Shown here in pieces: positions 15,901-63,488 of a stretch of 64,000 bases of DNA. Each line of letters opens with the position of its first letter. Within the stretch, counting starts at the first letter, position 1. The DNA lies in assembly GCA_045658565.1 (NCBI GenBank), contig JAZOVF010000008.1, forward strand, positions 49,051 to 113,050, written 5' to 3'. Origin of the DNA: Eubacteriales bacterium. Lineage in GTDB: Bacteria; Bacillota; Clostridia; Oscillospirales; CAG-272. The position numbers were made by a program, and so were the translations under genes. The notes beneath the pieces were generated by a model. The model was not told where the DNA came from, did not search any database, and saw nothing but the letters and a program-made list of their open reading frames with translations.

Positions 15901-17193
15901 ATGGAAAGAACTTATATTAAAGACGTTGCTCCCGGCATTTGCCGCGTTTCGGGCTTTGTTGAAAACTTCCGTAACAAGAGAACGATGGCGTTCATTGTTG
16001 TTAAAGACATTACCGGCAAGCTCCAGGTGACTATCGAGAAAGAAAAGCACCCCGAATTCACCGAAATGCTTGACTCACTCACTATTCACTCTGTTGTAAC
16101 CTTTGAGGGTGAGGTTGTTCTCAGCGAGTATGTAAAAATGGGCGGTAAGGAAATGTACCCCACCGCAATGAAGATTGAGTCTATTGCAGACGCTCTTCCC
16201 ATTAAGGATGATTCCGACATTGACGTTAAGATGGATTACCGTTGGATCGACCTTCGCAGAGATAAAAATCACCTTATGCTAAGAATGCAGACAACTCTTA
16301 CTAATGCTATGCGTGAGTTCCTCGTGGATCGCAACTTCGTAGAGATACACACTCCCAAGCTTATCGGTGCTGCATCCGAGTCCGGATCTGATGTATTTGA
16401 GGTTAAGTATTTCGATACTAACGCATACCTTGCACAATCTCCTCAGTTCTATAAGCAGATGGCTATGGCTTCGGGCCTTGAGCGTATATTCGAGACAGGT
16501 CCTGTTTTCAGAGCAGAGAAGTCCTACACCAACAAGCACGCAACCGAGTTTACCGGCTTTGATCTTGAGTTCTCTTACATCAACTCTTTTGAGGATGTTA
16601 TGAAGATGGAGGAGGAGCTTCTTGCCTATGCGATTGAAAAGGTGGCAGAGAAGCACGGTGATGAGATAGTAGCCCTCTTTGGTGAGGAGTTTAAGGTTAC
16701 TGTTCCCTCGCTTCCTTTCCCCAGAATGAAACTCGCTGACGTATATGCGGAGCTTGAAAAGAGATACGGCTACACCGTTCCCGACGAGCTTAAAGGTGAC
16801 CTTACCACCGAGGCTGAACGTATGACGAAGCAGCTTTGCAAGGATATGTTCGACCACGAATTTCTCTTCATTACCGATTACAGCGCCGCAGAGCGTGCCT
16901 TCTATCACATGAGAGACGAAAACGGTATACCCTGTGGCTACGACCTTATCTGGCGCGGTGTTGAGATTACAACAGGCGCACAGCGTGAGCACAGATACGA
17001 CGTTCTTAAAGCTCAGGCAGAGGAAAAAGGCCTTGCCGAAGACGTTAAGTTCTATCTCGAATTCTTCAAGTACGGCTGTCCTCCTCACGGAGGCTTCGGT
17101 ATCGGTATCGACCGTCTTACCATGCTCTTCCTTGGACTTTCGATTAAAGAGGCAGAGTTCCTCTTCAGAGGTCCTAACCGTTTAACGCCGTAA
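15901..17193 (+). CDS. aspS: Aspartate--tRNA ligase, short archaeal-type (probably non-discriminating)
   Basis: YLAQSPQFYKQM, FRAEKS, GAQREHRYD, YGCPPHGGFGIGIDR; 430 aa without a GAD insert. Confidence 0.93.
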   Translation: MERTYIKDVAPGICRVSGFVENFRNKRTMAFIVVKDITGKLQVTIEKEKHPEFTEMLDSLTIHSVVTFEGEVVLSEYVKMGGKEMYPTAMKIESIADALPIKDDSDIDVKMDYRWIDLRRDKNHLMLRMQTTLTNAMREFLVDRNFVEIHTPKLIGAASESGSDVFEVKYFDTNAYLAQSPQFYKQMAMASGLERIFETGPVFRAEKSYTNKHATEFTGFDLEFSYINSFEDVMKMEEELLAYAIEKVAEKHGDEIVALFGEEFKVTVPSLPFPRMKLADVYAELEKRYGYTVPDELKGDLTTEAERMTKQLCKDMFDHEFLFITDYSAAERAFYHMRDENGIPCGYDLIWRGVEITTGAQREHRYDVLKAQAEEKGLAEDVKFYLEFFKYGCPPHGGFGIGIDRLTMLFLGLSIKEAEFLFRGPNRLTP

Positions 17194-17458
17194 TTTTGCG
17201 TGATACTTTGTTACGCCTTTTGTGCTCGGCTCGGAGTAGGTAACTACACCGTCGCCTGTGCTCCTCGGCGTGTCTCGTCTGACGCAAAATTTCGTGCGTT
17301 AAAATTCCCCACGTTAAAACTATAATGCCGTAATTTTGCGTGATACTTTGTTACGCCTTTTGTGCTCGGCTCGGAGTAGGTAACTACACCGTCGCAGGTG
17401 CTCCTCGGCGTGTCTCGTCTGACGCAAAATTCCGTGCGTTGAAATTCCCCACGTTAAA
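17187..17458. repeat. Tandem duplication (140-bp period) of a long imperfect palindrome
   Basis: 17187-17318 and 17327-17458 match at 128 of 132 nt. Each copy has aattttgcgt...acgcaaaatt ends and a gtag-gtaa-ctac apex. Confidence 0.95.
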
Positions 17459-17505
17459 TTTCTCACGTTAAAATTACGATCCCGATTGATCATAAAGGAG
17501 TAAAA

Positions 17506-19500
17506 ATGTATACAGGCCACGTTTATCTGTATGACGGAACACCTCTTGAAAATATCAAGGTTACAGACGGCTTGAACATCTCAATAACCGACGAAAACGG
17601 TGCTTACACTCTTTCGGGGTGGGATAGAGCAAATGTGATTTCTGTCGGAGTTCTAACGCTTTATCATGACGATTGGTTTAGGTATATTGACTCTGGGCAC
17701 AGTGTATATGATTTCTATATTTCTCCGATTCCAAAGAAGGATTTCAGTCGTTTTGCTCACGTATCGGACACCGAAATATTCCTTGACAACGCAAAAATTG
17801 ACAAGTGGATAGATTTTGCAAGAAATACCTCAAAGAACGAGGATTGCGATTTTTTGATCCACACAGGCGATATTTGCCGTATAAGAGGACTTCAAACGCA
17901 TTATCGCGAGCTTAATTATCACACCTTGGGTATCCCTGTGAGATACACTATCGGTAACCACGATTACGTAAACGATAAGTACGGTGAATATAGCTTTGAG
18001 CGTCTTTACGGACCTATATATTATTCCTTTGACCACGGCGGAACTCATTACGTTGTGTTACCTATCAGAAAAGGCGAGACTGCCGGTCTTTACGAGCCCG
18101 ATGACTCGGTAAGATGGCTTAAAAACGACCTTTTATATAATAAATGTAAACAAATCGTTGTATTTTCACACAGTTTTTGCCACGAATCAGAGGAGGACTT
18201 CGTTTACGGCACAAGCGAGTCTGTTGACTTGAAGGAACACGGTATTCTCGCTTGGATATTCGGTCATCTTCACACAAACTTTTGCAACAAAACCGAGTGC
18301 GGTGCATTTAACATCTCAACTGCCCGTCCTGACCAGGGCGGCATAGACCTTTCGCCTGCTTGTATAAGAATTACCGATGTATGCGGTGCTGAACTTAGTA
18401 CAAAGCTTGTATATAACGAAAATAAATATACCGATAAAATTTCCACCTTTATCTATCGCAAAAAGCTTGGCGATGAATTCCTTTTCACCTCACCGATTTA
18501 TGCAGACGGTAGGATATATGCCGTAAGTTCTTCCGACGGTTATCCAAAGGATGCGTTTCTTTGCGCCTTGGACTCCGAGAGTGGAGAAATCATATATAAA
18601 AAACCGCTTAATTACGGAACAAAAACCGAGCCTGTATATAGTGATGGCAGACTGTTTTTGCTTGATACTAACGGAAATTTGCTCTGTTTTGACGTAAAGC
18701 ATGGCGACGTTTTGTGGAGCGTAAAGTTACCCGAAGCTTCTCCGAAATATTATAAGGGCGGTCTTTTAATAGACGAAGGACTTTTATACGTTCACGGCAG
18801 TTTAGGATTGGGGGGTTATTCGGCAGATGACGGAAAGTTGATGTTTTTCGCCGAAACAAACGGTAACGGCGGTACAAAGTCCGCAAAAATTCTGAAAATT
18901 GACGAAAAAATTGTATTTCCGTCTCAATGGGGACGATTTTGTGTCCTTGACGAGCAGGGAAATCTGTTATGGGATATACCGAGAATTAAGGATTCCTTGG
19001 CTTCTCCCGTTGCCGATGGCAGAACGGTTTACGTACCATCCGGCAGAACTTTGATAAAGTTGTCTGTCGATGACGGTGAGATTTTTGCAGAGACCGAAAA
19101 ATATTGCGACAGTGCATTCGATACACCCTCAAAGCCGCTTATTACAGACGAATTTATTTTCGTTTCAATGTCCGATTTCGGTGTTGTGGCGATGGATAAA
19201 GATAGTTTAGAAATAAGAAAGCGTTATGGTGTAGGCGAGTCCTTGATCGCCATTTGCCCTTATCTTGACCATTCGGCATACGTTGCGGTTGGCGATATAA
19301 TAGCCGTAACCGATAAAGTTATTATGTTTGCGTCCTGTGACGGAAATATATATTTCTATGATATTTACAGCGAAGAATGTATTAAAAAAATAAAAGTTGG
19401 AGCGCCATTGACCTCTACACCGATAATTTTTGAAAACAAGGTGGGCGTTGTCGATTTTTATGGCAATTTTACAGCTTATGAATTTCCAAAAATAAAATAA
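17506..19500 (+). CDS. Calcineurin-like metallophosphoesterase fused to a PQQ-like beta-propeller
   Basis: HVSDTE, HTGDI, GNHD, FGHLH motifs; C-terminal propeller repeats (ALDSESGEIIY, CFDVKHGDVLWS). Confidence 0.88.
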   Translation: MYTGHVYLYDGTPLENIKVTDGLNISITDENGAYTLSGWDRANVISVGVLTLYHDDWFRYIDSGHSVYDFYISPIPKKDFSRFAHVSDTEIFLDNAKIDKWIDFARNTSKNEDCDFLIHTGDICRIRGLQTHYRELNYHTLGIPVRYTIGNHDYVNDKYGEYSFERLYGPIYYSFDHGGTHYVVLPIRKGETAGLYEPDDSVRWLKNDLLYNKCKQIVVFSHSFCHESEEDFVYGTSESVDLKEHGILAWIFGHLHTNFCNKTECGAFNISTARPDQGGIDLSPACIRITDVCGAELSTKLVYNENKYTDKISTFIYRKKLGDEFLFTSPIYADGRIYAVSSSDGYPKDAFLCALDSESGEIIYKKPLNYGTKTEPVYSDGRLFLLDTNGNLLCFDVKHGDVLWSVKLPEASPKYYKGGLLIDEGLLYVHGSLGLGGYSADDGKLMFFAETNGNGGTKSAKILKIDEKIVFPSQWGRFCVLDEQGNLLWDIPRIKDSLASPVADGRTVYVPSGRTLIKLSVDDGEIFAETEKYCDSAFDTPSKPLITDEFIFVSMSDFGVVAMDKDSLEIRKRYGVGESLIAICPYLDHSAYVAVGDIIAVTDKVIMFASCDGNIYFYDIYSEECIKKIKVGAPLTSTPIIFENKVGVVDFYGNFTAYEFPKIK

Positions 19501-19523
19501 AAAATACATATAGGAGAAAAATT

Positions 19524-20162
19524 ATGAAAATCGCACTTATTAACGAAAACAGCCAGGCGGCTAAGAACGCTCTTATCGAGTCTACTCTTCGCTCTGTTGT
19601 TGAGCCTCTCGGTCACGAGGTGTTTAACTACGGAATGTACTCCGCAGAGGATAAGGAGCAGCTTACCTACGTTCAGATCGGTATTCTTTCCGCAATTCTT
19701 CTTAACTCCGGCGCTTGCGACCTTGTAATCACAGGTTGCGGCACAGGCGAGGGAGCTATGCTTGCTTGTAACTCTTTCCCCGGTGTTCTTTGCGGTCACG
19801 TTGTTGATCCTACCGACGCTTATCAGTTTACTCAGGTTAATAACGGTAACGCTATCTCTATGCCTTTCGCTAAGGGCTGGGGCTGGGGCTGTGAACTTAA
19901 CCTTCAGTACGTTTTTGAAAAGCTCTTCGTTTCCGAGTGGGGTCTTGGCTATCCTCGTGAGAGAGCAGTTCCCGAGCAGAGAAACAAGAAGATTCTTGAC
20001 GAGGTTAAAAAGGTAACTCACACCGATATGGTTTACATTCTCGAAAACCTTGACAGAGATCTTGTTAAGGGAGCTATTGCAGGTCCTAAGTTCCAGGAGT
20101 ACTTTTTCGCAAATTGCAAGTGCCCTGAAATCAAGGCTGCTGTTGAAAAGCTTCTTAAGTAA
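19524..20162 (+). CDS. RpiB/LacA/LacB family sugar isomerase with C-terminal extension (DhuI-like)
   Basis: MKIALINENSQAAKN, TGCGTGEGAMLACNSFPGV, FAKGWGWGCELNL. Confidence 0.9.
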   Translation: MKIALINENSQAAKNALIESTLRSVVEPLGHEVFNYGMYSAEDKEQLTYVQIGILSAILLNSGACDLVITGCGTGEGAMLACNSFPGVLCGHVVDPTDAYQFTQVNNGNAISMPFAKGWGWGCELNLQYVFEKLFVSEWGLGYPRERAVPEQRNKKILDEVKKVTHTDMVYILENLDRDLVKGAIAGPKFQEYFFANCKCPEIKAAVEKLLK

Positions 20163-20324
20163 TACATAAGTTTACGGTGCACTTTCGGTTTTCGACGGTG
20201 CGCCAACCGCATATTTGACAATAATTGTTTGCAAAAGCAGCTACTTTTACGTGCTTTATCTATTTGAAACCTTGAGTAATTGTCGGTTGCTTTGCTTGAA
20301 AAAAATAAGCATTTAATAGATTCT

Positions 20325-21107
20325 ATGAAAACAAAAAAGCAAATTAAATCAGAATATAAAGCAGCGCTTTTATCGGCAAAGGAGCGCTTTGTAAACGAGT
20401 GCGATAATGCCGAGCAGATTTATAAAAAAGAAATTGATGAGTTGCGTATAAGCGAGGGCAAGCCTGTGCCTAAGGACCCGCCAAAGCGCTCGCTCATTGA
20501 AGAAATAGGAAATTCGGTAACTCATGGATTAGGCAGTATTTTTGCTGTTGTTGCGTTGATTCTTATGGTAATATCAGCCGATAGAGCAGAGGAATACATC
20601 TCGGCGGCCATATACTTTGTAGGACTTTTCTCTATGTTCACAATGAGCTGTCTTTACCACGCGTTCCGTCATGGCTCCGGAGTAAAAAGACTGTTCAGAC
20701 GATTTGATTATTCGGGCATATATCTTCTTATTGGAGCTACGTTTGCCCCTGTTTTGATATGCTATTTCGGTAATCTTTTCGGCTTTATATTCTTTACTGT
20801 TCAGTGGGCTGTAATAGCTGCGGGAATCAGTCTTGTTGGAGTTTTTGGTCCTACCAGACTTCGTTTTCTCCATATTCCCATGTATGTAATATTGGGTTGG
20901 AGTGCCTTGATGCTTTTGCCGTTTATGATTTTTGGCGGGGCATCCGAGCTTGCAACCTGGATACTGCTTGGCGGTGTTATTTACACTATAGGTATAATTC
21001 CATTTGCTATTAAATTGAAGGGTTCTCACTTTATCTGGCATTTCTTTGTTCTGGCCGGTGCAATAGCCCAATGGGTAGGAATATATATGCATCTTTATTT
21101 GGCATAA
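20325..21107 (+). CDS. Hemolysin III / PAQR family membrane protein
   Basis: EEIGNSVTHG, SCLYH, RRFDYSGIYLLIGAT, HFIWHFFV. Confidence 0.92.
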   Translation: MKTKKQIKSEYKAALLSAKERFVNECDNAEQIYKKEIDELRISEGKPVPKDPPKRSLIEEIGNSVTHGLGSIFAVVALILMVISADRAEEYISAAIYFVGLFSMFTMSCLYHAFRHGSGVKRLFRRFDYSGIYLLIGATFAPVLICYFGNLFGFIFFTVQWAVIAAGISLVGVFGPTRLRFLHIPMYVILGWSALMLLPFMIFGGASELATWILLGGVIYTIGIIPFAIKLKGSHFIWHFFVLAGAIAQWVGIYMHLYLA

Positions 21108-21122
21108 AATTTCGGAGGTTTT

Positions 21123-30407: not shown

Positions 30408-31349
30408 TTGATTAGTACAAAATACGGTAAGGTTGTAAAGGGCCTTGGTGGTCTATACGAAACAAGAGTAGTAACAAACGGTAAAACCGAGCGCCTCGAA
30501 TGTCGGGCTAAGGGAATACTTAAGCGCGATGAGGCAAAGGTGCTGGTTGGTGATAATGTAATAATAACAGTAGACGACTCCACCCCGGACGGTATTGTGA
30601 TTTCTGAAATTGAGGAGAGAAAAAATTCGCTGATTCGCCCCCCTCTTGCAAATCTTGATTATCTTTTTATTGTTTTTGCGGCGGTAAAGCCTTCACCTGT
30701 TATTGAAACTGTAGATAAGCTTATATCAATAGCGGAGCACAATTCAATAACCCCTGTTATAGTAATAACAAAATCCGACCTTGCAGGAGATGCTTCAGAG
30801 GAATATGCGGCAATATACCGCCTTGTGGGACTTCCTACCTTTATCACCTCATCTGAAGCAGGCGAGGGGCTTAGCGAACTTTCCTCTTATATAAAAAGAG
30901 AGTTAAAAAACGGTAAAACTGCCGCCTTTGCGGGAGCCTCGGGTGTTGGAAAATCAACTCTTATGAATGCCCTTTTTCCCGGGCTTACCCTTGCAACAGC
31001 AGAAATATCGAGAAAAATAGAGCGTGGCAGACACACCACCCGCCATGTTGAAATATTTGACATAGAGGATAACGGTGATACAGGATTTCTCGCGGATACT
31101 CCGGGCTTTTCGCTTATAGATTTTGCCCGCTTTGATTTCTTCGCGCTTGATGAGCTATTACCCACATTCAGAGATTTTACCCCCTATCTCGGTGAGTGCC
31201 GCTATGCCGACTGTGCCCACTTTGGCGAGGGTGAGGACGAGTGTGCCGTAGCACGTGCTGCATTAGAAGGCAAAATATCTCCCTCCCGCCTTGAGTCCTA
31301 CCGCTCAATATATAGAGTTTTAAAGGATAAAAAGGGTTATGATAAATAA
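30408..31349 (+). CDS. rsgA: Ribosome small subunit-dependent GTPase A
   Basis: TKSDL, GASGVGKSTL, RGRHTTR, DTPGF, CRYADCAH...C; TTG start. Confidence 0.97.
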   Translation: MISTKYGKVVKGLGGLYETRVVTNGKTERLECRAKGILKRDEAKVLVGDNVIITVDDSTPDGIVISEIEERKNSLIRPPLANLDYLFIVFAAVKPSPVIETVDKLISIAEHNSITPVIVITKSDLAGDASEEYAAIYRLVGLPTFITSSEAGEGLSELSSYIKRELKNGKTAAFAGASGVGKSTLMNALFPGLTLATAEISRKIERGRHTTRHVEIFDIEDNGDTGFLADTPGFSLIDFARFDFFALDELLPTFRDFTPYLGECRYADCAHFGEGEDECAVARAALEGKISPSRLESYRSIYRVLKDKKGYDK

Positions 31350-31865
31350 GCCTTCCCCTTGGGGAAGGGGGACCACGGAGTGGTGGATGAGGTAATAGCA
31401 ACAACTTTTATTTGTGGAGTTTTAACTTTTTGAATGATATAAAAAATGCCTTACGAATATAACAGAACTTTAACTCTTAATGCGCAAGATTTGCGAAAGA
31501 ATATGACTCCTGATGAAAAACATCTATGGTATGATTTTTTGAAGCGATTACCTTTAACTGTCAATCGTCAAAAAATGATAGGACCATACATAACTGACTT
31601 TTATATTCATTCAGCAAAAATTGTGATTAAATTAGACGGTATTCAACACGAAATGCGTGAGAGCAAAACAAAAGATGAAAAGCGCGATGAATATTTAAAA
31701 TCACAGGGGATTGCGGTGTTGAGATATAGTAATGCCGTTCTTCGGGATAATTTTAACTTTGTATGTGAAGATATTTTAAATCATCTGGGACTTGATTATG
31801 AGGTTTTGAAAAAATAAGTGTACCTCATCCACCGCAAGCGGTCCCCCTTCCCCAAGGGGAAGGCT
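31349..31865. mobile_element. Candidate mini-element: DUF559 gene bracketed by inverted REP-like repeats
   Basis: Inverted repeats at 31349-31394 and 31821-31865; flanked by a 66-bp direct repeat of the rsgA 3' end at 31286-31351 and 31873-31938. Confidence 0.7.
31446..31817 (+). CDS. DUF559 / Vsr-like endonuclease domain protein, possibly inactivated
   Basis: LRKNMTPDEKHLWYDFL...RQKMIGPYITDFY...VIKLDGIQH...DEKRDEYL...VLRYSN. Confidence 0.9.
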   Translation: MPYEYNRTLTLNAQDLRKNMTPDEKHLWYDFLKRLPLTVNRQKMIGPYITDFYIHSAKIVIKLDGIQHEMRESKTKDEKRDEYLKSQGIAVLRYSNAVLRDNFNFVCEDILNHLGLDYEVLKK

Positions 31866-31872: not shown

Positions 31873-31938
31873 CCGCCTTGATTCCTATCGCTCAATATAT
31901 AGAGTTTTAAAGGATAAAAAGGGTTATGATAAATAAGC
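31873..31938 (+). repeat. Second copy of the last 66 bp of rsgA, including the stop codon
   Basis: 64 of 66 identical to 31286-31351. Confidence 0.95.
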
Positions 31939-34001: not shown

Positions 34002-35228
34002 TTAAAATGCCCACTCTCCGTTTTCAAAAATTTTTACCTCTTGTTCGTCGCGGCAAATGGCAGTAATACACATGTCGGGAGTTCCTATCATAAAGTCCTC
34101 GTGGATTATAGAGTCGTTTATTCCGAGGCTGTGAAGCTCCTCCTCGGTGTATTTGTCATAGTCTTTATAAAGATTGGTAAAGCCTCTGCCAAACGCAAGG
34201 TGGCAGGCTGCGTTTTCGTCAAAGAGGGTGTTGTAATAGAGCAGTCCCGATTCTCTTATAGGTGAGGAATATGGAACAAGAGCGCATTCGCCAAGATATG
34301 CTGCCCCCTCATCCATGCCGATAAGCTGTCTTAAGAATGACTCATTTTTTTCAGCTCCAACATCAACGGCACGTCCGCCCTCAAACTTTATCCAGAAGTT
34401 GTCAATAAGCTGCCCCTCAAAGGCTAAGGGCTTGGTTGAATAAACTATTCCGTCAGCATCCCCGCGTCTCGGAGAGGTAAATACCTCCTCCGAGGGAATG
34501 TTAGGGTTAAAATAAACACCCTTACCGAGGGTCTCTTCACCCCCTGCCATAAAGAGGCCGTCATCGAGAAGACCTACTCTTAGGTCGGTGCCGTTAGATG
34601 CCTTATATTTTAATTCCTTAATTCCGAGGGAATTTAAATATTCGTACTTCTTTTTTAGGTCAGCATTGTGCTTTTCCCAGGCGGCAATAGGGTCATCGTC
34701 AACTCTCGATGAGGTTAAAATAGCCTCCCAGAGCTTTTCTACCGCAACACTTGCTCTCTCGCCGGGGAATATCTTTTTTGCCCATTCCTTGCCGGGAACT
34801 GCGGCGATACACCACTGATATTTGTTTTCCATACGGTTGCGTATAGGCTTTATCGTCTTTGAGCGGGCAGCCATAGCAGCCGAGTATTTTTCTTGGTTAA
34901 TTCCCGCAAGTCCGTCGGGGTCCTCGGAGATAAGATATATCTTGCATGGCAAATTTTCTGCCTGCCACTCCCATTTTTCTATCTGCCACTTGTCAAGGGT
35001 AGAAAGTCTTTTCTTGGAGCAGTAGCGAACATCAAGCTTTGTCAGAGGCTGATAGGACCAATCTACCGTAACCTTTGCAGCTCCCGCCTTGTAGCACTCC
35101 TCGACTACCATTTTAACAAATTCGGGCTGGTCAAGCTCTGCGGAAACAAGAACCTCCTGTCCCTTTTGTACGTTGACACCCAAACGGGCAATAAGATTTG
35201 CATATTTTCTGAGTCGTGTTTTGTTCAT
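34002..35228 (-). CDS. Aminopeptidase, M29 family (AmpS/PepS-like)
   Basis: GVNVQKGQ, NIPSEEVFTSP, LGECALV, NTLFDENAACHLAFG, HEDFMIG. Confidence 0.95.
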   Translation of the reverse strand: MNKTRLRKYANLIARLGVNVQKGQEVLVSAELDQPEFVKMVVEECYKAGAAKVTVDWSYQPLTKLDVRYCSKKRLSTLDKWQIEKWEWQAENLPCKIYLISEDPDGLAGINQEKYSAAMAARSKTIKPIRNRMENKYQWCIAAVPGKEWAKKIFPGERASVAVEKLWEAILTSSRVDDDPIAAWEKHNADLKKKYEYLNSLGIKELKYKASNGTDLRVGLLDDGLFMAGGEETLGKGVYFNPNIPSEEVFTSPRRGDADGIVYSTKPLAFEGQLIDNFWIKFEGGRAVDVGAEKNESFLRQLIGMDEGAAYLGECALVPYSSPIRESGLLYYNTLFDENAACHLAFGRGFTNLYKDYDKYTEEELHSLGINDSIIHEDFMIGTPDMCITAICRDEQEVKIFENGEWAF

Positions 35229-52117: not shown

Positions 52118-53026
52118 ATGCTTTATTACAATCTCAGCGAATATTTCAGAAAAAAATACGGCAAAAGACTAAAAAAAATATGCATAGATGGCGGATTTTC
52201 CTGCCCAAACCGCGACGGAACCTGCGGTCAGGGTGGCTGCATATACTGTGGCGACAGGGGAGCGGGCGAGCATATCGACCCATTAAAATCTATTGCCGAG
52301 CAGGTAAGTTGTGCTGTTTCGGCATCAGGGTTCGATGACCTTTTTGTTGCCTATTTTCAGAATTTTACAAACACCTATGCGCCTGTTAAGGTTTTAAGGG
52401 AGAGATATGACTCCGCCCTTATCGACGAGCGTATAAAGGTGCTGGCTATCGGTACTCGTCCCGACTGTATTGACGAGGATGTATGCCGACTTATCTCAGA
52501 CTATAAGGAAACTCATGACGTGTGGGTTGAGCTTGGACTCCAGACCGCAAATGATAAAACCGCAGATATGATCAACCGCGGCTATCACAGAGATGTGTTT
52601 GAGAGAGCGATGAGCCACCTTAATAAATACGAAATTCCTGTTGTTGTTCATCTTATTGTAGGACTTCCCGGCGAGGGACCGCAAGAAATTAAAAAAACGG
52701 CAGAATACATCAGCCGTTTTGATATATGGGGAATAAAAATACATTCAATCTATGTGTCAAGCGGTACAAAACTTGCCGAAATGTACGAGGCAGGGCAGTA
52801 CACACCCCCCACTCTTTCCGAATTTGTGAATTCTGCGGTGCATATTTTAACTCACATAAGCCCAGATACGGTTGTGCACAGGCTCACAGGCGATTGTCCG
52901 AGGGATATGCTTATAGCTCCCGAGTGGAACTCTGATAAGCACAAAATTATAAATGAAATAAACGGATATCTTGAAAAGAACGGACTTTATCAAGGATGCC
53001 AATACAAAAAGCCTTCCAAGAATTAA
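52118..53026 (+). CDS. TIGR01212 family radical SAM protein (YhcC/YtqA-like)
   Basis: DGGFSCPNRDG...GGCIYC, YFQNFTNTYA, IGTRPDC, VELGLQT, HRLTGD. Confidence 0.95.
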   Translation: MLYYNLSEYFRKKYGKRLKKICIDGGFSCPNRDGTCGQGGCIYCGDRGAGEHIDPLKSIAEQVSCAVSASGFDDLFVAYFQNFTNTYAPVKVLRERYDSALIDERIKVLAIGTRPDCIDEDVCRLISDYKETHDVWVELGLQTANDKTADMINRGYHRDVFERAMSHLNKYEIPVVVHLIVGLPGEGPQEIKKTAEYISRFDIWGIKIHSIYVSSGTKLAEMYEAGQYTPPTLSEFVNSAVHILTHISPDTVVHRLTGDCPRDMLIAPEWNSDKHKIINEINGYLEKNGLYQGCQYKKPSKN

Positions 53027-53053
53027 TTTCGGGAAGGCTTTTCATCTAAAAAA

Positions 53054-53362
53054 CTATTTGAGTATTACCGCTAAGGCTGCAATAGCTGTTTCCAAAATTA
53101 ACACACAAGGATAATAAATAAGAAGTATTTTTTCCAGCATGGCAACAGTAAAACCGTACTTGTTTGCAAAATATCTGATTATCGCCTCTTCAGAGTAGTC
53201 CTTCAGAACAAAAATATACATTAACACGGCTCCGGCAACCAGAATAAAATAGGATAGCATTTCGTCTTTCATAAAAGCGACAATTCCAAAAAATGCAAGG
53301 AAAAAATCAAAAAAGATGGTTATTCCTTTCATAACTATTCTATACATTTCAATAAATACCAA
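53054..53362 (-). CDS. Small hypothetical membrane protein
   Basis: About three TM segments; GGGGAG RBS before TTG. Confidence 0.6.
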   Translation of the reverse strand: MVFIEMYRIVMKGITIFFDFFLAFFGIVAFMKDEMLSYFILVAGAVLMYIFVLKDYSEEAIIRYFANKYGFTVAMLEKILLIYYPCVLILETAIAALAVILK

Positions 53363-53457
53363 TTTAACTCCCCCTAGTTCTATTGTTTGTTTAAGTGTTT
53401 GTTTTCGGTTTACTGTTGCTAATGTAAGTAAATATTGAAAAGCATGATACTCCCTCC

Positions 53458-53706
53458 TTAAACGTCATAGCTTTTCACTCTTTCGATGCAAGAGGGGCAA
53501 AGTCCTAAGTCCGAATTAAGCTCGCCCTGCTTTTTGCACATAGCACACAGGCGCTCCGAAGCCTTTATCAGAACTGTGTCCTCGTTCATAGTGATTAAAA
53601 CCTTTGAGCTTCTTTCAATGCCTAGCTTTTTTCTGAAATCCATAGGAAGAACAACTCTGCCGAGCTTATCAACCTCTCGTTCTATTCCGTTATTTCCTCT
53701 TTTCAT
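53458..53706 (-). CDS. AbrB/MazE/SpoVT family DNA-binding protein with C-terminal CxxC...CxxC
   Basis: GIEREVDKLGRVVLPMDFRKKLGI...CAMC...CPSC. Confidence 0.92.
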   Translation of the reverse strand: MKRGNNGIEREVDKLGRVVLPMDFRKKLGIERSSKVLITMNEDTVLIKASERLCAMCKKQGELNSDLGLCPSCIERVKSYDV

Positions 53707-53726
53707 AAATAAAACCCCTTAAAAGC

Positions 53727-53937
53727 AAAAAGTGCGGCAACCGAAGTCACCGCACCGAAAAACGCAAACCCCGATTGTCGGGAAACAAAATTCAATATAG
53801 GTACTTCTTTCGTCATACCACCACTGATGGAATTTGCGTTTTTACCAAATTCTACCGTGATGATAGACAAAAAAAGGGTATAATTATCCCTATGAACGAA
53901 AATACCTTGTTTTAAATATTGAATTTTATTTCCCGAC
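53727..53937 (-). ncRNA. Candidate structured RNA or attenuator leader upstream of the abrB-like gene
   Basis: Promoter TTGAAA-17-TATAAT at 53941-53969; 22-bp closing stem 53777-53798/53916-53937; cUUCGg terminator hairpin at 53732-53755 with U tract. Confidence 0.6.
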
Positions 53938-54111
53938 TATATTATACCACATAAATACTTTCGTTTCAAGTAATTTTTTAAAAAAAGCTCTATTATTGTC
54001 TTCCTGAGGCACAATTAGCTATTCTGCCACTCAGAATGACAAAAAAGCCTTCCACAAATTAATTTCGGGAAGGCTTTTAAACTAAATTGAAAATCTATTC
54101 TGAATAGCGCA

Positions 54112-55437
54112 TTATTTTAAATGCTTAATTTGCTTATGCTTGGGCATGGTTTTTATATGCTCATCTCTTGCACTTGTCTTACCCTCGGGCTTAATATCAC
54201 CCGACTTGATAAGGGATATTTTAGTAAGCATAGGACCAACAAGCTCGTATATGAGAACTGCGAAGAGAGTAATGCTTCTTATAATCTCTCCGTCAGCTCC
54301 AAGACCGTCTTTAGCAATCATTGACATACCGAGAGCAACACCCGCTTGTGGAAGCAAGGTTATACCCAGATATTTTACTATATTATCGTCGCATTTTGAT
54401 ATCCTTGCACTAAGGTATGCACCGCTATATTTTCCGATTGAACGGCTTAATATGTAAACAATACCTATCAAAACTATCATAAAATCGGCAAAAACAGTAA
54501 GATTAAGCTCTGCGCCCGAAATCACAAAGAAGATGACAAACAATGGAGCTGTCCACCTGTCTACACGTTCCATAAGCTCTTCGGAAAAGTCGCACACGTT
54601 GCAGAAAACCGTGCCTAGCATCATGCATACGAGAAGCGACGAGAAACCGATATGAACGCCCATAACGGTAAAGTCCATCAATGAAAGAGCTATGGTGAGA
54701 AGCACGAATGTAATAGACATTGAAAGACGCTTTGAGCGAGAGTGGAAGAAGCGCTCGCAGAAGTTGAAAATAAAGCCCATAGCCGCACCGAGAACCAACG
54801 AGAGAATAACTTCAAGTACAGGTTCAACCAGCATTGAAATTATGCTTACCGAGCCGCTCTGTATAGCCTTTGCTACACCGAATGAGGCCGCAAAAAGCAT
54901 AAGTCCGACTGCGTCGTCAAGAGCAACAACGGGAAGAAGTATGTCAGTAAGAGGACCCTTTGCCTTATACTGCTTAACAACCATAAGGGTTGCGGCGGGA
55001 GCTGTTGCTGCCGCAATTGCACCGAGAGTCAGCGCCGCAGGCAGACTGAGAACGTCGGGGAAAGCAAAGTGAAAGGCTATTAATGCAGCATCAACAAGAA
55101 GAGTTGTTATAACTGCCTGGAGAATACCGATTATTGTAGCCTGGCGCCCAATTTTTTTCAGCTGAGACAGGCGGAACTCGTTGCCTATCGAGAAGGCAAT
55201 AAAGCCGAGAGCTATCTCGCTTAAAATCTTGAAGCTCTCTACATTCTCCAATGATGTAAACCCGATTCCCGGAACATCGAGCTTTCCAAGAACAAACGGA
55301 CCGACAAGAATACCTGCAACAAGATAAGCGGTAACTGCAGGCAGCTTTAAGAGCTTAGCAAGTCTTGAGAGCATCAGACCTGCAAAAATAGCTATTGAAA
55401 TTGATAAAAGTGTTTGAGTTATGTATTCTTCGGGCAT
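54112..55437 (-). CDS. Cation:proton antiporter (CPA2 family)
   Basis: LPAVTAYLVAGILVGP, IAFSIGNEF, ATAPAAT, VVALDDA, LLPQAGVALG. Confidence 0.93.
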   Translation of the reverse strand: MPEEYITQTLLSISIAIFAGLMLSRLAKLLKLPAVTAYLVAGILVGPFVLGKLDVPGIGFTSLENVESFKILSEIALGFIAFSIGNEFRLSQLKKIGRQATIIGILQAVITTLLVDAALIAFHFAFPDVLSLPAALTLGAIAAATAPAATLMVVKQYKAKGPLTDILLPVVALDDAVGLMLFAASFGVAKAIQSGSVSIISMLVEPVLEVILSLVLGAAMGFIFNFCERFFHSRSKRLSMSITFVLLTIALSLMDFTVMGVHIGFSSLLVCMMLGTVFCNVCDFSEELMERVDRWTAPLFVIFFVISGAELNLTVFADFMIVLIGIVYILSRSIGKYSGAYLSARISKCDDNIVKYLGITLLPQAGVALGMSMIAKDGLGADGEIIRSITLFAVLIYELVGPMLTKISLIKSGDIKPEGKTSARDEHIKTMPKHKQIKHLK

Positions 55438-58328: not shown

Positions 58329-59206
58329 ATAAGCTTTTCAAGCTCTCCCGAAAGGGTTGCCTTTGTAGATGCCCTTACCTCATAAAGGGGAAGTCTTAAT
58401 TCCGGGGAGCATAGCCCAAGTTTTGACATTGCGTATTTTATTGGCGCAGGGTTTGTCTCTAAGAATAATGAATTTATAAACGGTAAGAGCCTTAGCTGTG
58501 TTGCGAGGCTCTTTTTTGTATCCCCCTCTAAATAATAATTAACAATATCGCAGGCATCTTTTGGCAAAATATTAGACACAACCGAAATTGCTCCCGCGCC
58601 GCCGAGGGCAAGAGCTGTATAAATTTGCGAGTCATTTCCTGCATAAAGGGGAAGTGATATGCCAAAGGCAGAAAGAGAAACCAGCCTGTCAGCAGAGTCG
58701 GATGCCTCTTTTATTCCAACGGTGTTCTCATGCTCAGAAAGCCTTGATAGAAGATTCAATCCCAGGTTTACCCCTGTTCTTGAGGGGACATTATAAAGTA
58801 TCGCGGGCAGGTCGGCTGATTCCAAAATTGACATATAGTGCCTGAAAACGCCCTCCTCCGTACCCTTGTTGTAATATGGAGTAACTAAAAGCACGCCGTC
58901 ACAGCCTATCTCCGCAGCCCTTTTTGTATGCCTTATGGCGGCTGCCGTATCGTTTGTTCCAGTGCCAAAGACGAGCTTTATTCTGCCAAGGCATCTCTCA
59001 GCAGTAAATTCAAAAAGCGAATATCTCTCCGAGTCTGTAAGGGTGGCGGCCTCGCCTGTTGTACCGCCTATAATAAGTGCGTGTACTCCTGAGGAAATTT
59101 GCATCTCTATAAGGTTTTCAAGTGCATCAAAATCAATTTCTCCGTTTTTAAAAGGAGTTACAAGGGCAGTTCCAATGCCGTTGAATATAGTTTTTTTAGT
59201 TTTCAT
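58325..59206 (-). CDS. dapA: 4-hydroxy-tetrahydrodipicolinate synthase
   Basis: ALVTPF, GTTGE, VTPYYNK, LYNVPSRTG, GIKEAS, ETNPAPIK; probable start ATG 59206. Confidence 0.96.
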   Translation of the reverse strand: MKTKKTIFNGIGTALVTPFKNGEIDFDALENLIEMQISSGVHALIIGGTTGEAATLTDSERYSLFEFTAERCLGRIKLVFGTGTNDTAAAIRHTKRAAEIGCDGVLLVTPYYNKGTEEGVFRHYMSILESADLPAILYNVPSRTGVNLGLNLLSRLSEHENTVGIKEASDSADRLVSLSAFGISLPLYAGNDSQIYTALALGGAGAISVVSNILPKDACDIVNYYLEGDTKKSLATQLRLLPFINSLFLETNPAPIKYAMSKLGLCSPELRLPLYEVRASTKATLSGELEKLI

Positions 59207-59296
59207 AACTTTATTGCTCTCATCTCTTGAAAAAACAAATGGTTTTGTGTATAATTGATTCGTATATTTATATTTTATGAAATAGGAGAAGCTCTC

Positions 59297-60391
59297 GTGC
59301 CGACAGATACGAAAAATAAAGAAGAAATAATAATAAATAAGAGGTGCGAAACCGACCTTACAACTCACGATTTTTATTACGACCTGCCCGAGGAGCTTAT
59401 TGCTCAGTTCCCGACGGCTGAGCGTGACGGCTGCCGACTTATGGTGCTTGACAGAGAATCTGGCAGGGTAGAGCATAAGCACTTTTACGATATAATAGAC
59501 TATCTTAACCCCGAGGATATGCTGGTGGTTAATTCCTCCAAGGTAATACCGGCAAGACTCCTTGGCAAAACCGACAAGACAGGCTCGGATATGGAGCTTT
59601 TGCTTCTCCGTATGCTTGACTCGGGGGAGTGGGAAACCCTTGTTCGTCCGGGAAAGCGCGCAAAGGTAGGCGCAGGCTTTGACTTTGGAGGAATTCTCCA
59701 CGCCACAGTTACCTCGGTGCTTGATGACGGAAACAGAATAGTTAAATTTGATTACGATATCGAAAAATACGGCTCAATATACGAGGTTCTCGACGAGGTG
59801 GGAAATATGCCCCTGCCTCCCTATATTACAAAAAAGCTGGAAAACAAGTCCGACTACCAGACAGTTTATGCTAAAGAGGAGGGCTCAGCCGCAGCTCCCA
59901 CAGCAGGTCTGCATTTTACAAAGGAGCTGCTTGAAAAAATCAAAGCCAAGGGTGTAGGCTATGGCGAGGTAACTCTTCACGTTGGTCTCGGCACATTCCG
60001 TCCCGTAAAGGTTGAGAGGCTTGAAGAGCACCTTATGCACTCGGAATATTTCTACATAACAGAGGATGTAGCCGAGGAAATAAACCGCCGCAGAGCCGCA
60101 GGAGGCAGAATTATTGCCGTAGGAACAACCGCCTGCCGTGTGCTTGAAAGCGTTGCCGAGTCTGACGGAAAAATGAGAGCCTTTAAGGGCGAAACAGGAA
60201 TTTTCATCTACCCCGGCTACAAATTCAAGGCAATAGACGCCCTGATAACAAACTTCCACCTTCCAGAGTCCACCCTTATAATGCTGGTCAGCGCCCTTGC
60301 GGGAAAAGAAAATACCATGAATGCGTACAAAACGGCAGTAGATGAGAAATACCGATTTTTCTCCTTTGGTGATAGTATGTTTATTCAATAA
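59297..60391 (+). CDS. queA: S-adenosylmethionine:tRNA ribosyltransferase-isomerase
   Basis: [52 protein letters not shown]; GTG start after AGGAG. Confidence 0.97.
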
Positions 60392-60525
60392 GTCCCGAGT
60401 ACTGCAAAACCCTCAAAAGCCGGAAAAATATGCCCAAAGTAACTATTTGGCTACATAATTTGGAGCAGAAATGGAAAAAATAACTAAAAAATACCGTTTT
60501 TTGTTCCTAAAAGGTTGTTATTATA

Positions 60526-60554
60526 TTGACAAATATCTACCAAAGTAGTATAAT
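60526..60554 (+). promoter_or_regulatory. SigA-type promoter of serC-serA
   Basis: Exact TTGACA-17 bp-TATAAT. Confidence 0.8.
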
Positions 60555-60616
60555 AAGTGTAATTTTATTTTTAATGAAAGGATTTACCCTATAAAGGGTA
60601 AAAATGGGCAAACAAA

Positions 60617-61717
60617 ATGAACAGAGTGTATAATTTCTCAGCCGGCCCTTCTATGCTTCCCCTTGAGGTTCTCGAGCGTGCGCAGAAGGAGATGCTGTGC
60701 TACAGAGAGTCAGGAATGTCGGTTATGGAGATGAGCCACCGTACCCCTGAGTTTGAGGCTATTCTTCACGGGGCAGAGGACGCACTCAGAAAGCTGATGA
60801 ACATTCCTGCAAACTACAAAATTCTCTTTATGCAGGGTGGAGCATCAACTCAGTTTGCTTCAGTTCCGCTTAACCTTCTTTCCGCACATCAGTGTGCAGA
60901 CTATATCGTTTCGGGCCAGTTCTCCAAGAAGGCTGCTACCGAGGCTAAGAAGTATGGTGATATAGCTATTGCGGCATCCTCCGCAGGCGCAATTCCTACC
61001 TTCTCCACAATTCCCGAAACAACAAAAAGCTCCTTCCGTCCAGATGCAGACTATGTTCATATCTGCTTTAACAATACTATTTACGGAACAAAGTTCCACT
61101 ATATTCCCGATACAGGAAACATTCCTCTTGTTGCTGATATGTCATCCTGCATCTGCTCCGAGCCTGTTGATGTTTCAAAGTTTGGCCTTATCTACGCAGG
61201 AGCTCAGAAGAACATCGCTCCCGCAGGTGTAACTATTGTTATTGTTCGTCAGGACCTTATCGGAAACGCACGTCCGGACACTCCCGCAATGCTTGACTAT
61301 CAGAACATGGCAGAGAACGACTCTATGTACAACACTCCTCCCTGCTGGTGCATCTATATGGCAAAGCTTGTGTTTGAGTGGATTCTTTCTATCGGAGGTC
61401 TTGAGGAAATGAAGCGCCGTAATGAGAGAAAGGCTTCTCTTCTTTACGATTATCTTGACGCTCAGTCCTACTATACCGCAAGTGTTGACAAAAAGTGCCG
61501 TTCTATGATGAACGTGGTGTTTATTACAGGCGATGCCGAGCTTGATAAAAAGTTCTGCAAGGAGGCATCCGAGAGAGGTCTTAAGAACCTTAAGGGTCAC
61601 CGTTCTGTTGGCGGTATGCGTGCATCTATCTACAATGCTATGCCCACCGAGGGTGTTGAAAAGCTTGTCGAGTTCATGAAGGAATTTGCAGCTAACAACC
61701 CCAAGGTTCAGTATTAA
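60617..61717 (+). CDS. serC: Phosphoserine aminotransferase
   Basis: RVYNFSAGPSMLP, EMSHR, YAGAQKN, GHRSVGGMRASIYNA. Confidence 0.98.
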   Translation: MNRVYNFSAGPSMLPLEVLERAQKEMLCYRESGMSVMEMSHRTPEFEAILHGAEDALRKLMNIPANYKILFMQGGASTQFASVPLNLLSAHQCADYIVSGQFSKKAATEAKKYGDIAIAASSAGAIPTFSTIPETTKSSFRPDADYVHICFNNTIYGTKFHYIPDTGNIPLVADMSSCICSEPVDVSKFGLIYAGAQKNIAPAGVTIVIVRQDLIGNARPDTPAMLDYQNMAENDSMYNTPPCWCIYMAKLVFEWILSIGGLEEMKRRNERKASLLYDYLDAQSYYTASVDKKCRSMMNVVFITGDAELDKKFCKEASERGLKNLKGHRSVGGMRASIYNAMPTEGVEKLVEFMKEFAANNPKVQY

Positions 61718-61763
61718 GTATCAATAAAAATCCTAGTAAAACAGGAAAAATGTAAACAAAACT

Positions 61764-62927
61764 ATGAAAAAAATCAAATTAATGAATAAAATTGCCGCTA
61801 TCGGCACTGATGTTTTTGATAAAAACGTGTATGAGGTTTCCGAGAACGTAGAAGCACCTGATGCTATGATGGTGCGTTCTGCCAACCTTCACGAAATGGA
61901 ATATAACCCAGAGCTTCTTGCAATTGCAAGAGCGGGCGCAGGTGTAAACAACATTCCTACCGACGAGTGCGCTAAGCGCGGTATTGTTGTTTTCAACACC
62001 CCCGGTGCTAATGCAAACGGAGTTAAGGAGCTTGCAGTTGCGGCTCTTATGCTTGCTTCCCGTGACGTTGCCGGCGGTATTGAGTGGGTTAAAGCTAACG
62101 CAGACGATGCTAATATTGCAAAGACTGTTGAAAAGGAGAAATCAAAGTTTGCAGGCTGCGAAATCCTTGGCAAGACCCTTGGTGTTATCGGCCTTGGCGC
62201 TATCGGCGGTATGGTTGCAAATGCGGCAAAGAACCTCGGTATGAAGGTTGTTGGCTGTGACCCCTATCTTACAGTTAATGCGGCATGGAGCCTTTCCAGC
62301 TCGGTTCACCATGCACAGAGCTATGACGAAATTTACGCAGTTTCAGATTACATCACTCTTCACGTTCCCGCCACAGCTTCAACAAAGGGAATGATAAACA
62401 AGGAAACTATAGCAAAGATGAAGGACGGTGTGCGTATTATTAACCTTGCCCGCGCCGAGCTTGTCAATACAGAGGATATTAAGGAAGCCCTCGAGTCAGG
62501 AAAGGTTGCAGCGTATGTAACCGACTTCCCAACCCCCGAGACAGTTGGTCTTAAGAATACCGTAAACATTCCCCACCTTGGCGCATCCACCGCAGAGAGC
62601 GAGGATAACTGTGCGGTTATGGCAGCGCAGGAGCTTTCTGAGTTCCTTGCAACAGGAAATATCAGAAATTCCGTTAACTATCCCGCGGTTTCTATCCCCC
62701 ACACAGGCGCAGCCCGCATCTGTATAGCTCACAAGAATATACCCAATATGCTTTCCCAGATTACAGTTATCGTATCCGGAGCAGGCATCAATATTGAGAA
62801 CTTCTCAAACGGCTCTAAGGGCGACTTCGCTTACACTATCGTTGAGATAGGCGTTGATGTTCCCACAGCTATCGTTGCGGCTCTTGAGGCTATTGACGGA
62901 ATAATTAAGGTTAGAGTAATAGATTAA
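61764..62927 (+). CDS. serA: D-3-phosphoglycerate dehydrogenase with C-terminal ACT domain
   Basis: RAGAGVNNIP, NTPGANAN, GLGAIG, PHLGAST; follows serC. Confidence 0.95.
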   Translation: MKKIKLMNKIAAIGTDVFDKNVYEVSENVEAPDAMMVRSANLHEMEYNPELLAIARAGAGVNNIPTDECAKRGIVVFNTPGANANGVKELAVAALMLASRDVAGGIEWVKANADDANIAKTVEKEKSKFAGCEILGKTLGVIGLGAIGGMVANAAKNLGMKVVGCDPYLTVNAAWSLSSSVHHAQSYDEIYAVSDYITLHVPATASTKGMINKETIAKMKDGVRIINLARAELVNTEDIKEALESGKVAAYVTDFPTPETVGLKNTVNIPHLGASTAESEDNCAVMAAQELSEFLATGNIRNSVNYPAVSIPHTGAARICIAHKNIPNMLSQITVIVSGAGINIENFSNGSKGDFAYTIVEIGVDVPTAIVAALEAIDGIIKVRVID

Positions 62928-62961
62928 ATAATGTTCACGGCACCCCTCGGGGTGCCGATTT

Positions 62962-63199
62962 TGTCATCCTGAGGCGCACAGGGCTTATTCGAGGACGAAG
63001 AGTCAGCCCCGAAGGATCTCCTTTCTCGAACCTATTGCAAGTTCGGTCTTTTGCAGGGATGCACCTCGATAAAACTGACGACCGATGGTCGCCCCTACAA
63101 TTCACCTTTGCAAATCCAAAAGGGAATAAGGCTCCGAGAGGGAGATTCTTCGTGGTGAGATTTTAGTCTCCGAATATAATTTCTGCCGCTCAGAATGAC
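62962..63199. repeat. Empty GTCATCCTGAG-type palindromic element with a nested GTAG-type REP
   Basis: Left arm tgtcatcctgag...cgaaggatctcc; right arm ggagattcttcg...ctcagaatgac; internal acgaccgatggtcgcccctaca at 63078-63099. Confidence 0.8.
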
Positions 63200-63488
63200 G
63201 GATTATTTGCGACTTTGTAACCATATATAAAAATTACGGCACCCTTTACGGGTGCCGCTTTTGTTTGTGTAGCGACAACTTGGAATTTGCGTATTTCCCA
63301 ACAATCGGAGTTTGTTTTTTGCTTGTGGGAGGGGATCGCATTTTGTTTTGCATACATTTCTCCTAAAAGATATGATTTTAACCACATATGATTGGTTACA
63401 AATATATTATAAATCAGATGTGATTAAAAGTCAACACTTTTTTAATCATATATGATATAATTTTACAAAATAATATTTGGAGGAAAGT

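Follow-up and report, generated by a model that had tools for sequence, protein, structure and literature searches.

Putative selfish cassettes lodged at gene boundaries of an Eubacteriales genome, with duplicated gene ends that look like imported or displaced alleles

In a stretch of 64,000 nucleotides from an Eubacteriales bacterium (contig JAZOVF010000008.1, positions 49,051-113,050, assembly GCA_045658565.1; hereafter the window), the ends or terminators of four genes (aspS, rsgA, the radical SAM gene encoding MnmL/YtqA and a serA-like gene) are duplicated beside short palindromic elements. We propose, with a probability of about one half, that these elements are small selfish cassettes, belonging to three families and inserted precisely at the borders of genes, and that the duplication seen with the family found behind rsgA (family A) is an imported or displaced gene end left by recombination-driven accretion. 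The extra gene-end copy beside such cassettes looks like a working allele that was imported or displaced rather than the scar of a cut. Homologous recombination would be the route of entry, and DUF559 and GIY-YIG nucleases might take part in it.

The genome that contains the window (G000, the window lying on its contig C8) comprises 1.67 Mb in 38 contigs, is 97.8% complete and has a G+C content of about 44%. Compared genomes, loci and contigs are labelled Gnnn, Lnnn and Cn, respectively, G171 being the closest relative of G000. Sequences were analyzed with Tandem Repeats Finder, Pfam, NCBIfam, Rfam (zero matches in the window at gathering thresholds), BLAST, sequence matching to the PDB and DNA folding energies with their z-scores. 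The gene end that belongs to the intact gene is called the working copy, and the displaced second copy the relic. The features of the four sites are listed in Table 1.

Table 1. Features of the four sites in the window (positions are those of the window; ORF, open reading frame)
Feature	Position	Strand	Evidence or remark
aspS, aspartate-tRNA(Asn) ligase, host gene of site 1	15901-17193	+	Pfam tRNA-synt_2, E 1.1e-76; NCBIfam NF003483, 414.6 bits (cut-off 353)
Two tandem 140-bp units	17183-17462	+	Each with last 11 nt of aspS, H-family palindromic element and tail
rsgA	30408-31349	+	Pfam RsgA_GTPase, E 1.4e-46; 31287-31349 (63 nt) form the working copy of the end
Family A double hairpin, left arm of DUF559 cassette, 45 nt	31350-31394	+	BoxC/triplex-motif-like; two hairpins, -9.7 kcal/mol
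DUF559 gene (Vsr-like nuclease fold), 123 aa	31446-31817	+	Pfam PF04480, E 1.7e-26; PDB 3HRL, E 1e-7
Family A double hairpin, right arm, inverted	31821-31864	-	Sequence
Relic rsgA end, 20 codons and stop, out of context	31874-31936	+	61/63 identical to 31287-31349
Radical SAM tRNA-modification gene MnmL/YtqA	52118-53026	+	NCBIfam TIGR01212, 335 bits (cut-off 180); stop codon in terminator loop
Terminator hairpin copy 1, 45 nt	53006-53050	.	Fold -12.1 kcal/mol, z -6.1; repeat family D9
Cassette inserted between terminator copies	53054-53995	-	Two ORFs and family C leader
Membrane-like ORF in this cassette, 102 aa	53054-53362	-	ORF call
MazE/AbrB-type ORF in this cassette, 82 aa	53458-53706	-	Pfam MazE_antitoxin, E 2.4e-7
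Family C leader in this cassette	~53713-53790	-	Multicopy
Minimal D-family palindrome (two inverted ends only), 44 nt	53998-54041	.	Adjoins terminator copy 2
Terminator hairpin copy 2	54042-54086	.	91% identical to copy 1; 1036 nt downstream
Convergent Na+/H+ exchanger gene	54112-55437	-	Pfam Na_H_Exchanger; served by terminator copy 2
serA-like 2-hydroxyacid (phosphoglycerate) dehydrogenase	61764-62927	+	Pfam 2-Hacid_dh_C, E 1.3e-39; NCBIfam PGDH match below cut-off
serA terminator hairpin T1	62938-62957	.	Fold -10.3 kcal/mol
Gene-less D-family element, 238 bp, inverted ends	62962-63199	.	Both ends of the GIY-YIG element, no gene
Second hairpin T2, stem as in T1	63237-63257	.	Fold -10.8 kcal/mol
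HTH (XRE-type) gene, 72 aa, between T2 and GIY-YIG element	63489-63707	+	Pfam HTH_3, E 9e-16
Full D element, left end and start of 104-aa GIY-YIG gene	63738-64000	+	Continues past the window

Anatomy and recurrence of family A insertions

The rsgA site displays the complete anatomy, with an intact gene, a double hairpin, a small nuclease gene, an inverted double hairpin and a relic of the gene end in direct succession. The two copies of the end lie 587 nt apart and differ by one synonymous and one conservative change. Family A elements are made of the blocks CCTTCCCC, GGGGAAGG and GGATGAGG and have a second hairpin of 11-18 nt. In 32 of 32 distinct variants, this hairpin keeps a perfect stem of at least 4 pairs through paired changes, two pairs having been fixed by the search pattern itself. 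The pattern of family A has matches in 52 of 201 genomes of the genus, and the reversed control pattern has none. G000 carries several copies, and solo copies are scattered in this genome and in the genus.

An inspection of nearby direct repeats throughout G000 revealed duplications at other genes. On C23, a solo A stands between two copies of the asnS end, each 43 codons long. On C11, an A is flanked by two copies of the start of a low-molecular-weight phosphatase gene (ribosome-binding site plus 13 codons). Furthermore, a terminator is duplicated around a cassette with HTH and MazE/AbrB genes on C6. Family A alone uses at least 10 different host genes, with duplications of 36 to 129 nt, and one gene end can have duplications of different lengths in different species (114 versus 51 nt for the end ...ICILL, 81 versus 36 nt for ...GRIQR). 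The duplicated piece always contains the gene terminus, leaving one intact gene. Cargo genes between the copies encode nucleases or small regulators, namely DUF559, T5orf172, MazE/AbrB and HTH proteins.

The association between duplications and repeats was quantified at two scales. The dispersed repeats obtained by self-comparison of G000 were merged into 99 composites, 84 of which were far enough from contig ends to be tested. Direct repeats scoring at least 25 between the 400-nt flanks were detected at 5 of these 84 composites, compared with 9 of 1500 random positions (Fisher p = 5e-4). Among the five, one case consists of two tRNA paralogues. This test is conservative, as it missed all four sites of the window, where the copies are farther apart or inside the repeated unit. 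At the scale of the genus, 30 A loci were tested, one per genome. With flanks of 900 nt, 6 of them had flank repeats scoring at least 25, compared with 8 of 600 control positions with equal flanks, and a seventh locus (score of 21.5) was real on inspection. In G171, 6 of 11 further A loci have a flank duplication, with one more at its Na+/H+ exchanger gene.

These results bear on several claims of the initial annotation, which had been made from the sequence of the window. The four duplications that it described are all present, the one at rsgA being a repeat of 63 nt with 61 identical positions; their expected recurrence next to repeats appears as the genome-wide enrichment above; and the upstream host gene, said to be left intact, is so in all cases inspected. 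The rule that placed such events at gene 3' ends holds for these ends and is in fact wider, since such duplications also occur at the 5' ends of genes, at tRNA genes and in numerous related genomes. On the other hand, the single route of integration that it proposed for all sites does not fit the presence of three unrelated element families (H, A and D) in the four cases of the window.

The same diversity of families could be taken to mean that the duplications come from unrelated local events, i.e. slippage or unequal crossing-over near hairpins, and that the elements merely accumulate after genes. The aspS duplication, which is a plain tandem of gene end and element present in G043 too and hence old, and the arrays of unit plus hairpin seen at L083, L088 and L109 go in the same direction. 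However, slippage gives identical copies and accounts neither for the synonymous divergence, the four-allele array and the single orientation in 14 of 14 cases described below, nor for the 10- to 18-fold enrichment beside repeats. We thus consider an origin by local events quite unlikely.

Site-specific integration would lead to a similar final architecture (intact gene, element and displaced end with synonymous differences), the copies being the attL and attR sites of elements that carried a replacement gene end and whose interiors have since been deleted. The tandem accretion of units and the duplication of tRNA and tmRNA-like ends are compatible with such footprints. However, no integrase or recombinase gene was found between any inspected pair of copies, the two tyrosine recombinase genes (PF00589) of G000 are both away from these sites, and this genome has 0 matches to PF01797 and no Y1 transposase. 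Moreover, the use of at least 10 different genes by one hairpin family argues against a site-specific recombinase; the variable length at one gene and the constant presence of the hairpin element at the junction, in a single orientation, also count against integrase footprints, which we regard as very doubtful.

Two side observations concern the sites used and the cargo. The ends of tRNA or tmRNA-like genes, together with terminators, are duplicated around other hairpin modules (C3:112424/112733, C3:113123/113302, C31:79125/79299 and C33:1947/2138). L067 in G195 and L072 in G133 have the same host gene end, with hairpin A, a relic that includes about 35 nt of downstream sequence and, between these, different cargo genes (203 aa versus 80 aa).

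Allele-like divergence and orientation of the relics

The differences between working copies and relics are those expected between alleles. In 11 pairs from 8 genomes (a twelfth pair, L080, is not counted), the codon differences comprise 58 synonymous and 11 non-synonymous ones. Random single substitutions in the compared gene ends are synonymous in 21% of cases (binomial p = 7e-29; p = 6e-14 against an expectation of 40%). A fresh copy drifting after its formation would gather mostly changes of the non-synonymous type. Therefore, at least one copy of each pair has been a working gene end throughout its history. For instance, the two asnS copies show 14 differences in 129 positions, all 14 synonymous, including TGA versus TAA as stop codon. 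In an array of G213, one gene end is present four times; all copies specify the same 11 residues, with 8 synonymous codon changes, one of which is from TCG to AGC, both coding for serine. In G171, the differences among the three copies of L109 are confined to the last three codons and are all synonymous, and the relic of L112 has a different short tail, as in orthologues.

Furthermore, the relics obey an orientation rule. In 14 of 14 independent cases linked to family A, at 3' as well as 5' gene ends, 2-9 nt separate the internal breakpoint of the relic from the first-hairpin end of A; the opposite end of solo A faces the working stop or start codon. These cases are asnS, rsgA and the phosphatase gene of G000, loci L074, L075, L080, L083 and L088, and, in G171, the exchanger gene and loci L108, L109, L112, L113 and L115.

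Both patterns are difficult to reconcile with a mechanism along the lines of the initial annotation, namely a long target-site duplication of variable length. According to this mechanism, a hairpin-associated nuclease would make staggered nicks 40-140 bp apart, followed by insertion and gap filling, and both copies would come from the resident target. Duplication lengths do differ from site to site, and DUF559 and GIY-YIG nuclease genes are linked to hairpin families, so that the association of nucleases with hairpins stands. However, for family A, the nick-made origin of the copies conflicts with the pattern of purifying selection (58 versus 11 codons) and with the arrays of several different synonymous alleles. 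Moreover, a symmetric fill-in predicts neither relics at the same end in 14 of 14 cases nor duplications that always reach the gene terminus. Overall, we consider a target-site duplication unlikely, although it is the alternative that we would retain first.

A possible route of entry

If the cassettes spread by recombination, the arriving family A unit would consist of a copy of a conserved gene terminus (including either the stop codon or the ribosome-binding site and start codon) joined to the hairpin element, and would pair with the resident gene by homology. It could enter as a small circle by a single crossover or, alternatively, by homing-type repair of a double-strand break. The imported end would become or stay the working end, and the other copy would be left as a relic on the far side, always at the first-hairpin end. 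Fragments containing the terminus would be the only ones tolerated because only they leave the gene intact. Repeated arrivals would stack further units, and loss by recombination between copies, followed by regain, would keep the relics similar to working alleles.

A broader proposal, which we offer tentatively and hold to be possible but doubtful, is that double hairpins of the BoxC/triplex type, with DUF559 (possibly also GIY-YIG or T5orf172) as occasional drivers, constitute a widespread and undescribed class of bacterial mobile cassettes devoid of transposase and integrase. Such cassettes would use a recoded gene terminus as a homing arm, enter by homology, rescue the gene with their own end, leave a relic at the first-hairpin end and stack alleles. 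If true, they would be the naturally occurring counterpart of gene drives with recoded rescue, and would provide an origin for the long-unexplained BoxC/PIT repeats.

Filled and empty sites in related genomes

Orthologous sites with and without insertion were found on both sides of the comparison. Three A sites that are filled in G171 are empty in G000. Conversely, the asnS end is without duplication in 19 of 19 relatives and the rsgA end in 10 of 10 more distant loci; an RsgA search of metagenome contigs gave a best identity of only 46%. The rsgA, radical SAM and serA sites are filled in G171 and the aspS site in G043, with the same junctions in independently assembled genomes, three of the four sites of the window being common with a related species at 84-91% identity.

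The insertion at rsgA in G171 is orthologous to that of G000 and has the same junction, plus an added T5orf172 gene. The G171 locus was also considered as an rsgA relic travelling with the cassette into a new context; this was rejected, as BLAST identified it as the orthologous rsgA locus with extra inserts. The two copies of the rsgA end match within each species (61/63 in G000, 63/63 in G171) and 6 positions differ between species. This means that the relic is renewed instead of decaying.

In 4 of the 19 asnS relatives (L044, L052, L055 and L057), a repeat of another family (F) begins a few bases 3' of the asnS stop codon, with no duplication. To judge from these sequences, the asnS gene end is apparently a shared landing place of repeat families. 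Downstream of the rsgA relic, the segment 31940-33961 of G000, with a 190-aa ORF without Pfam match and others, is wholly unlike its counterpart in G171, which contains a flavin-reductase-like gene; synteny between the two genomes resumes at 34002.

DUF559 genes bracketed by double hairpins

The protein encoded between the two hairpins behind rsgA is a DUF559 member (92.7 bits versus a gathering score of 20.6 for PF04480), and PDB 3HRL is its only PDB match by sequence. Its orthologue at the same site in G171 is 91% identical. A sample of 8 DUF559 loci was obtained by a protein search of genome contigs; in 6 of them, from Clostridia, Gastranaerophilales and Doudnabacteria bins, inverted double hairpins stand on either side of the gene. 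A variant hairpin likewise brackets the second DUF559 gene of G000.

Points weighing against imported gene ends

Several observations weigh against the recombination scheme or restrict its reach. Identical or nearly identical pairs of copies (73/73 beside one tRNA, 63/63, 68/69 and 36/36) fit a fresh target duplication equally well. No donor allele of the asnS end above 88% identity was found among the 212 other genomes of the genus, while the two copies are 90% identical to each other and are each other's closest relatives among 213 genomes, as expected if both had been made from one resident target. Dispersed repeats are mostly without duplication (79 of 84 sites in G000), and none of the 8 DUF559 loci from other genomes has a flank duplication beyond the element's own repeats. 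In addition, the window copy of DUF559 reads K-L-D-G where its G171 orthologue, the second copy of G000 and PDB 3HRL read E-x-D-G. It thus has a lysine in place of the conserved glutamate, which we take to be a catalytic residue. On this sequence evidence, the window copy may be catalytically dead, which makes a local role of the nuclease doubtful. Finally, the duplications of 11 nt at aspS and of about 21-45 nt at the terminators lack the length, or the coding content, required by the synonymous test and by efficient homologous recombination, so that the favoured explanation may not cover three of the four sites of the window.

Attempts to identify the native copy with outgroups gave discordant answers. 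Of the 5 informative sites at the Na+/H+ exchanger gene of G171, 4 have the G000 state in the relic and 1 has it in the working copy, whereas asnS, L113 and rsgA gave mixed or opposite results, which also weakens the scheme. The pattern expected from a single crossover at asnS, with native states 5' in the working copy and 3' in the relic, was seen by eye at 3 of 3 and 5 of 8 informative sites and is not significant.

A further reservation is that every genome in the analysis is a metagenome bin and that the copies differ about as much as strains or sister species do, so that strain variants of a gene end might have been misjoined around a repeated hairpin during assembly. However, the sharing of the window sites with related species argues against such an artefact, the same junctions being found at orthologous filled sites in independent assemblies (G171 and G043). 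The architecture occurs in more than 10 bins, and, where the hairpin meets the middle of a gene, there is no shared sequence through which an assembler could have joined the two. Misassembly is therefore highly improbable.

Comparison with known systems

In fungal mitochondria, mobile endonuclease ORFs, or mORFs (Allomyces atp6; Glomus atp6, atp9, cox2 and nad3), bring a foreign C-terminal gene part that displaces the native one (PMC3630166). They resemble the cassettes described here in several respects: a small free-standing nuclease gene is located at the 3' end of a conserved gene, the order is working C-terminus, element and displaced C-terminus, the copies diverge like alleles, and a horizontal origin has been proposed (PMC3630166). 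The rsgA site has the same components, i.e. a nuclease ORF at the 3' end, an in-frame working end and a displaced end, to which the G171 site adds T5orf172. Unlike mORFs, however, our elements reside in a bacterial chromosome, their nucleases are of the DUF559/Vsr-like or GIY-YIG/T5orf172 types, and their constant part is a directional double hairpin, mostly without a nuclease gene; moreover, 5' gene ends and multi-allele tandem stacks also occur.

The hairpins themselves recall the BoxC/PIT/TM_ECO repeats, intrastrand-triplex motifs of E. coli and other bacteria whose consensus in E. coli is CCCTCNCCC N3-6 GGGNGAGGG N3 GGGNGAGGG (PMC4666352). Like these repeats, family A is short, conserved, intergenic and multicopy (with matches across the genomes of the genus as given above), and comprises three blocks, one rich in C, a second complementary to it and a third rich in G. 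As far as the accessible text of that paper goes, BoxC/PIT/TM_ECO repeats are widespread across phyla, have a variable local gene context and no known mobility enzyme, show no transposase or integrase remnants nearby, and are described without the word duplication (PMC4666352). The published second loop has 3 nt (PMC4666352), whereas family A has its 11-18-nt second hairpin at this place; furthermore, the motif described here brackets DUF559 genes and marks gene-end duplications. The repeat that flanks DUF559 in the Doudnabacteria locus is closer to the BoxC consensus than family A is.

REP/REPIN-RAYT systems consist of a Y1 HUH transposase gene, the RAYT, bracketed by repeats. They share with our elements a single-copy enzyme gene placed between inverted copies of an otherwise dispersed short hairpin repeat. 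However, the enzyme is here a DUF559 protein of PD-(D/E)XK fold instead of a Y1 HUH transposase, in keeping with the lack of PF01797 matches. To our knowledge, REPINs have not been reported with gene-end duplications.

Prophage e14 in icd of E. coli, as well as integrative and conjugative elements (ICEs) and cis-mobilizable elements (CIMEs) that accrete at fda, tRNA and tmRNA genes, for instance in streptococci, replace the 3' end of a gene through a site-specific recombinase acting at one fixed att site. The resulting intact gene, element and displaced end with synonymous differences, and the tandem accretion at one site, are similar to what we observed. By contrast, our inserts contain no recombinase, and one hairpin family is found at many genes rather than at a single att site. 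Miniature inverted-repeat elements of DDE transposons also differ, as their target duplications are short, of fixed length and identical at birth, compared with 36-129 nt and an allele-like divergence here. Integron-type cassettes were dropped as candidates, there being no array beside an integrase (no integron family search was made). Diversity-generating retroelements were dropped as well, since the targets are housekeeping gene ends and no reverse transcriptase lies nearby, again with no family search made.

Vsr-like homing endonucleases, such as I-Bth0305I and those encoded by the free-standing genes of 'fractured genes', have a comparable Vsr-type fold and are likewise selfish and located in conserved genes (PMC3239194, PMC2677866). 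However, they are reported to reside within introns or between the parts of split inteins, and are not known to produce a duplication.

Taken together, the cassettes are a bacterial variant of a known selfish-element footprint, tied to an unexplained class of repeats. In the literature searched, supplementary files not covered, we found no paper that describes bacterial gene-end duplications beside either DUF559 cassettes or repeats of the BoxC type. If our reading is true, BoxC/PIT/triplex motifs, which have been for decades without partner enzyme or spreading route, would gain a function-linked context, and gene-end replacement in the style of mitochondrial mORFs would extend to bacterial chromosomes, to many housekeeping genes and to both gene ends. 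Relic ends with only synonymous differences would then mark imported alleles and could be used to detect and date recombination across species. Moreover, annotators should take short duplicated gene ends beside hairpin repeats neither for assembly errors nor for ordinary target-site duplications.

Family H at aspS

At aspS, Tandem Repeats Finder detected a tandem of period 140 with 2.0 copies and 96% matches (17183-17458), whose unit starts 11 nt before the end of the stop codon. The palindromic H element is about 108 nt long, with cores at about 17190-17297 and 17330-17437, and folds at -21.2 kcal/mol (z -3.3). G043 has the tandem as well, and its units are orthologous one to one to those of G000; in G170, the last aspS codons occur a second time, and no H element was found at the aspS locus of G113. 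These comparisons indicate that the tandem is probably an old local duplication of the H element, common to G043. The statement that a palindrome abuts one copy does not apply to aspS, where the palindrome is inside both units; it is correct for the radical SAM gene, where the 44-nt palindrome adjoins copy 2.

Family D and GIY-YIG at the radical SAM and serA sites

The terminator duplications around D elements at the radical SAM and serA sites are real and conserved, and may have another origin than those of family A. The radical SAM cassette is present in G171 and absent in G170 and G043, which have other terminators. The G171 site has three terminator copies and two D elements, and the counterpart of the minimal palindrome carries a nested insertion.

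The full D element beyond serA is 562 bp long with inverted ends (window-equivalent positions 63741-64302), and its GIY-YIG gene starts at 63873. The encoded protein belongs to PF01541 (E 1.9e-11, 44.5 bits versus a cut-off of 22.6) over the 42 residues within the window. The gene-less D element derives its ends from such an element: its left 73 nt (62959-63031) are 90% identical to 63738-63810, and its right 104 nt are 90.5% identical to 64199-64302. The 73-nt repeat near serA is not a terminator; it represents the left end that the GIY-YIG element and its gene-less derivative have in common. With strict motifs, D-type ends were found at most 350 nt away, on at least one side, from 9 of 15 GIY-YIG homologues in the genus, and on both sides at only two or three of the 15 loci. 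The serA layout of G171 is that of G000, T1 and T2 being identical there, loop included; in four other relatives, both the terminators and the downstream gene differ.

G000 and G171 are 97% identical over the segment 63181-64000 (to 64302 on the contig), which contains T2, the HTH gene and the GIY-YIG element, compared with 90% over serA and 84-86% over the other flanks. This suggests a recent exchange between the two species.

Other repeats of the same modules

A module of about 290 bp, consisting of a spacer, a D element into which two variant A hairpins are nested as a pair, and a terminator copy, lies on both sides of the radical SAM cassette at L095 (G171:C35, 1250-1540 and 2476-2765). 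Its counterpart in G000 is only the minimal palindrome, on one side. Family C is a leader of about 75 nt with a GC hairpin, located upstream of MazE/AbrB-type small genes and without Rfam match; its other copies are at C4:56456, C5:28041, C11:20464, C23:21521, C31:1855 and C31:24261. Finally, two tandem XRE-type genes of G000 (C11:14627-15527), followed by a gene-less D element, share their last ~200 bp, terminator included, at 90.6% identity, and their 5' parts have no nucleotide match.

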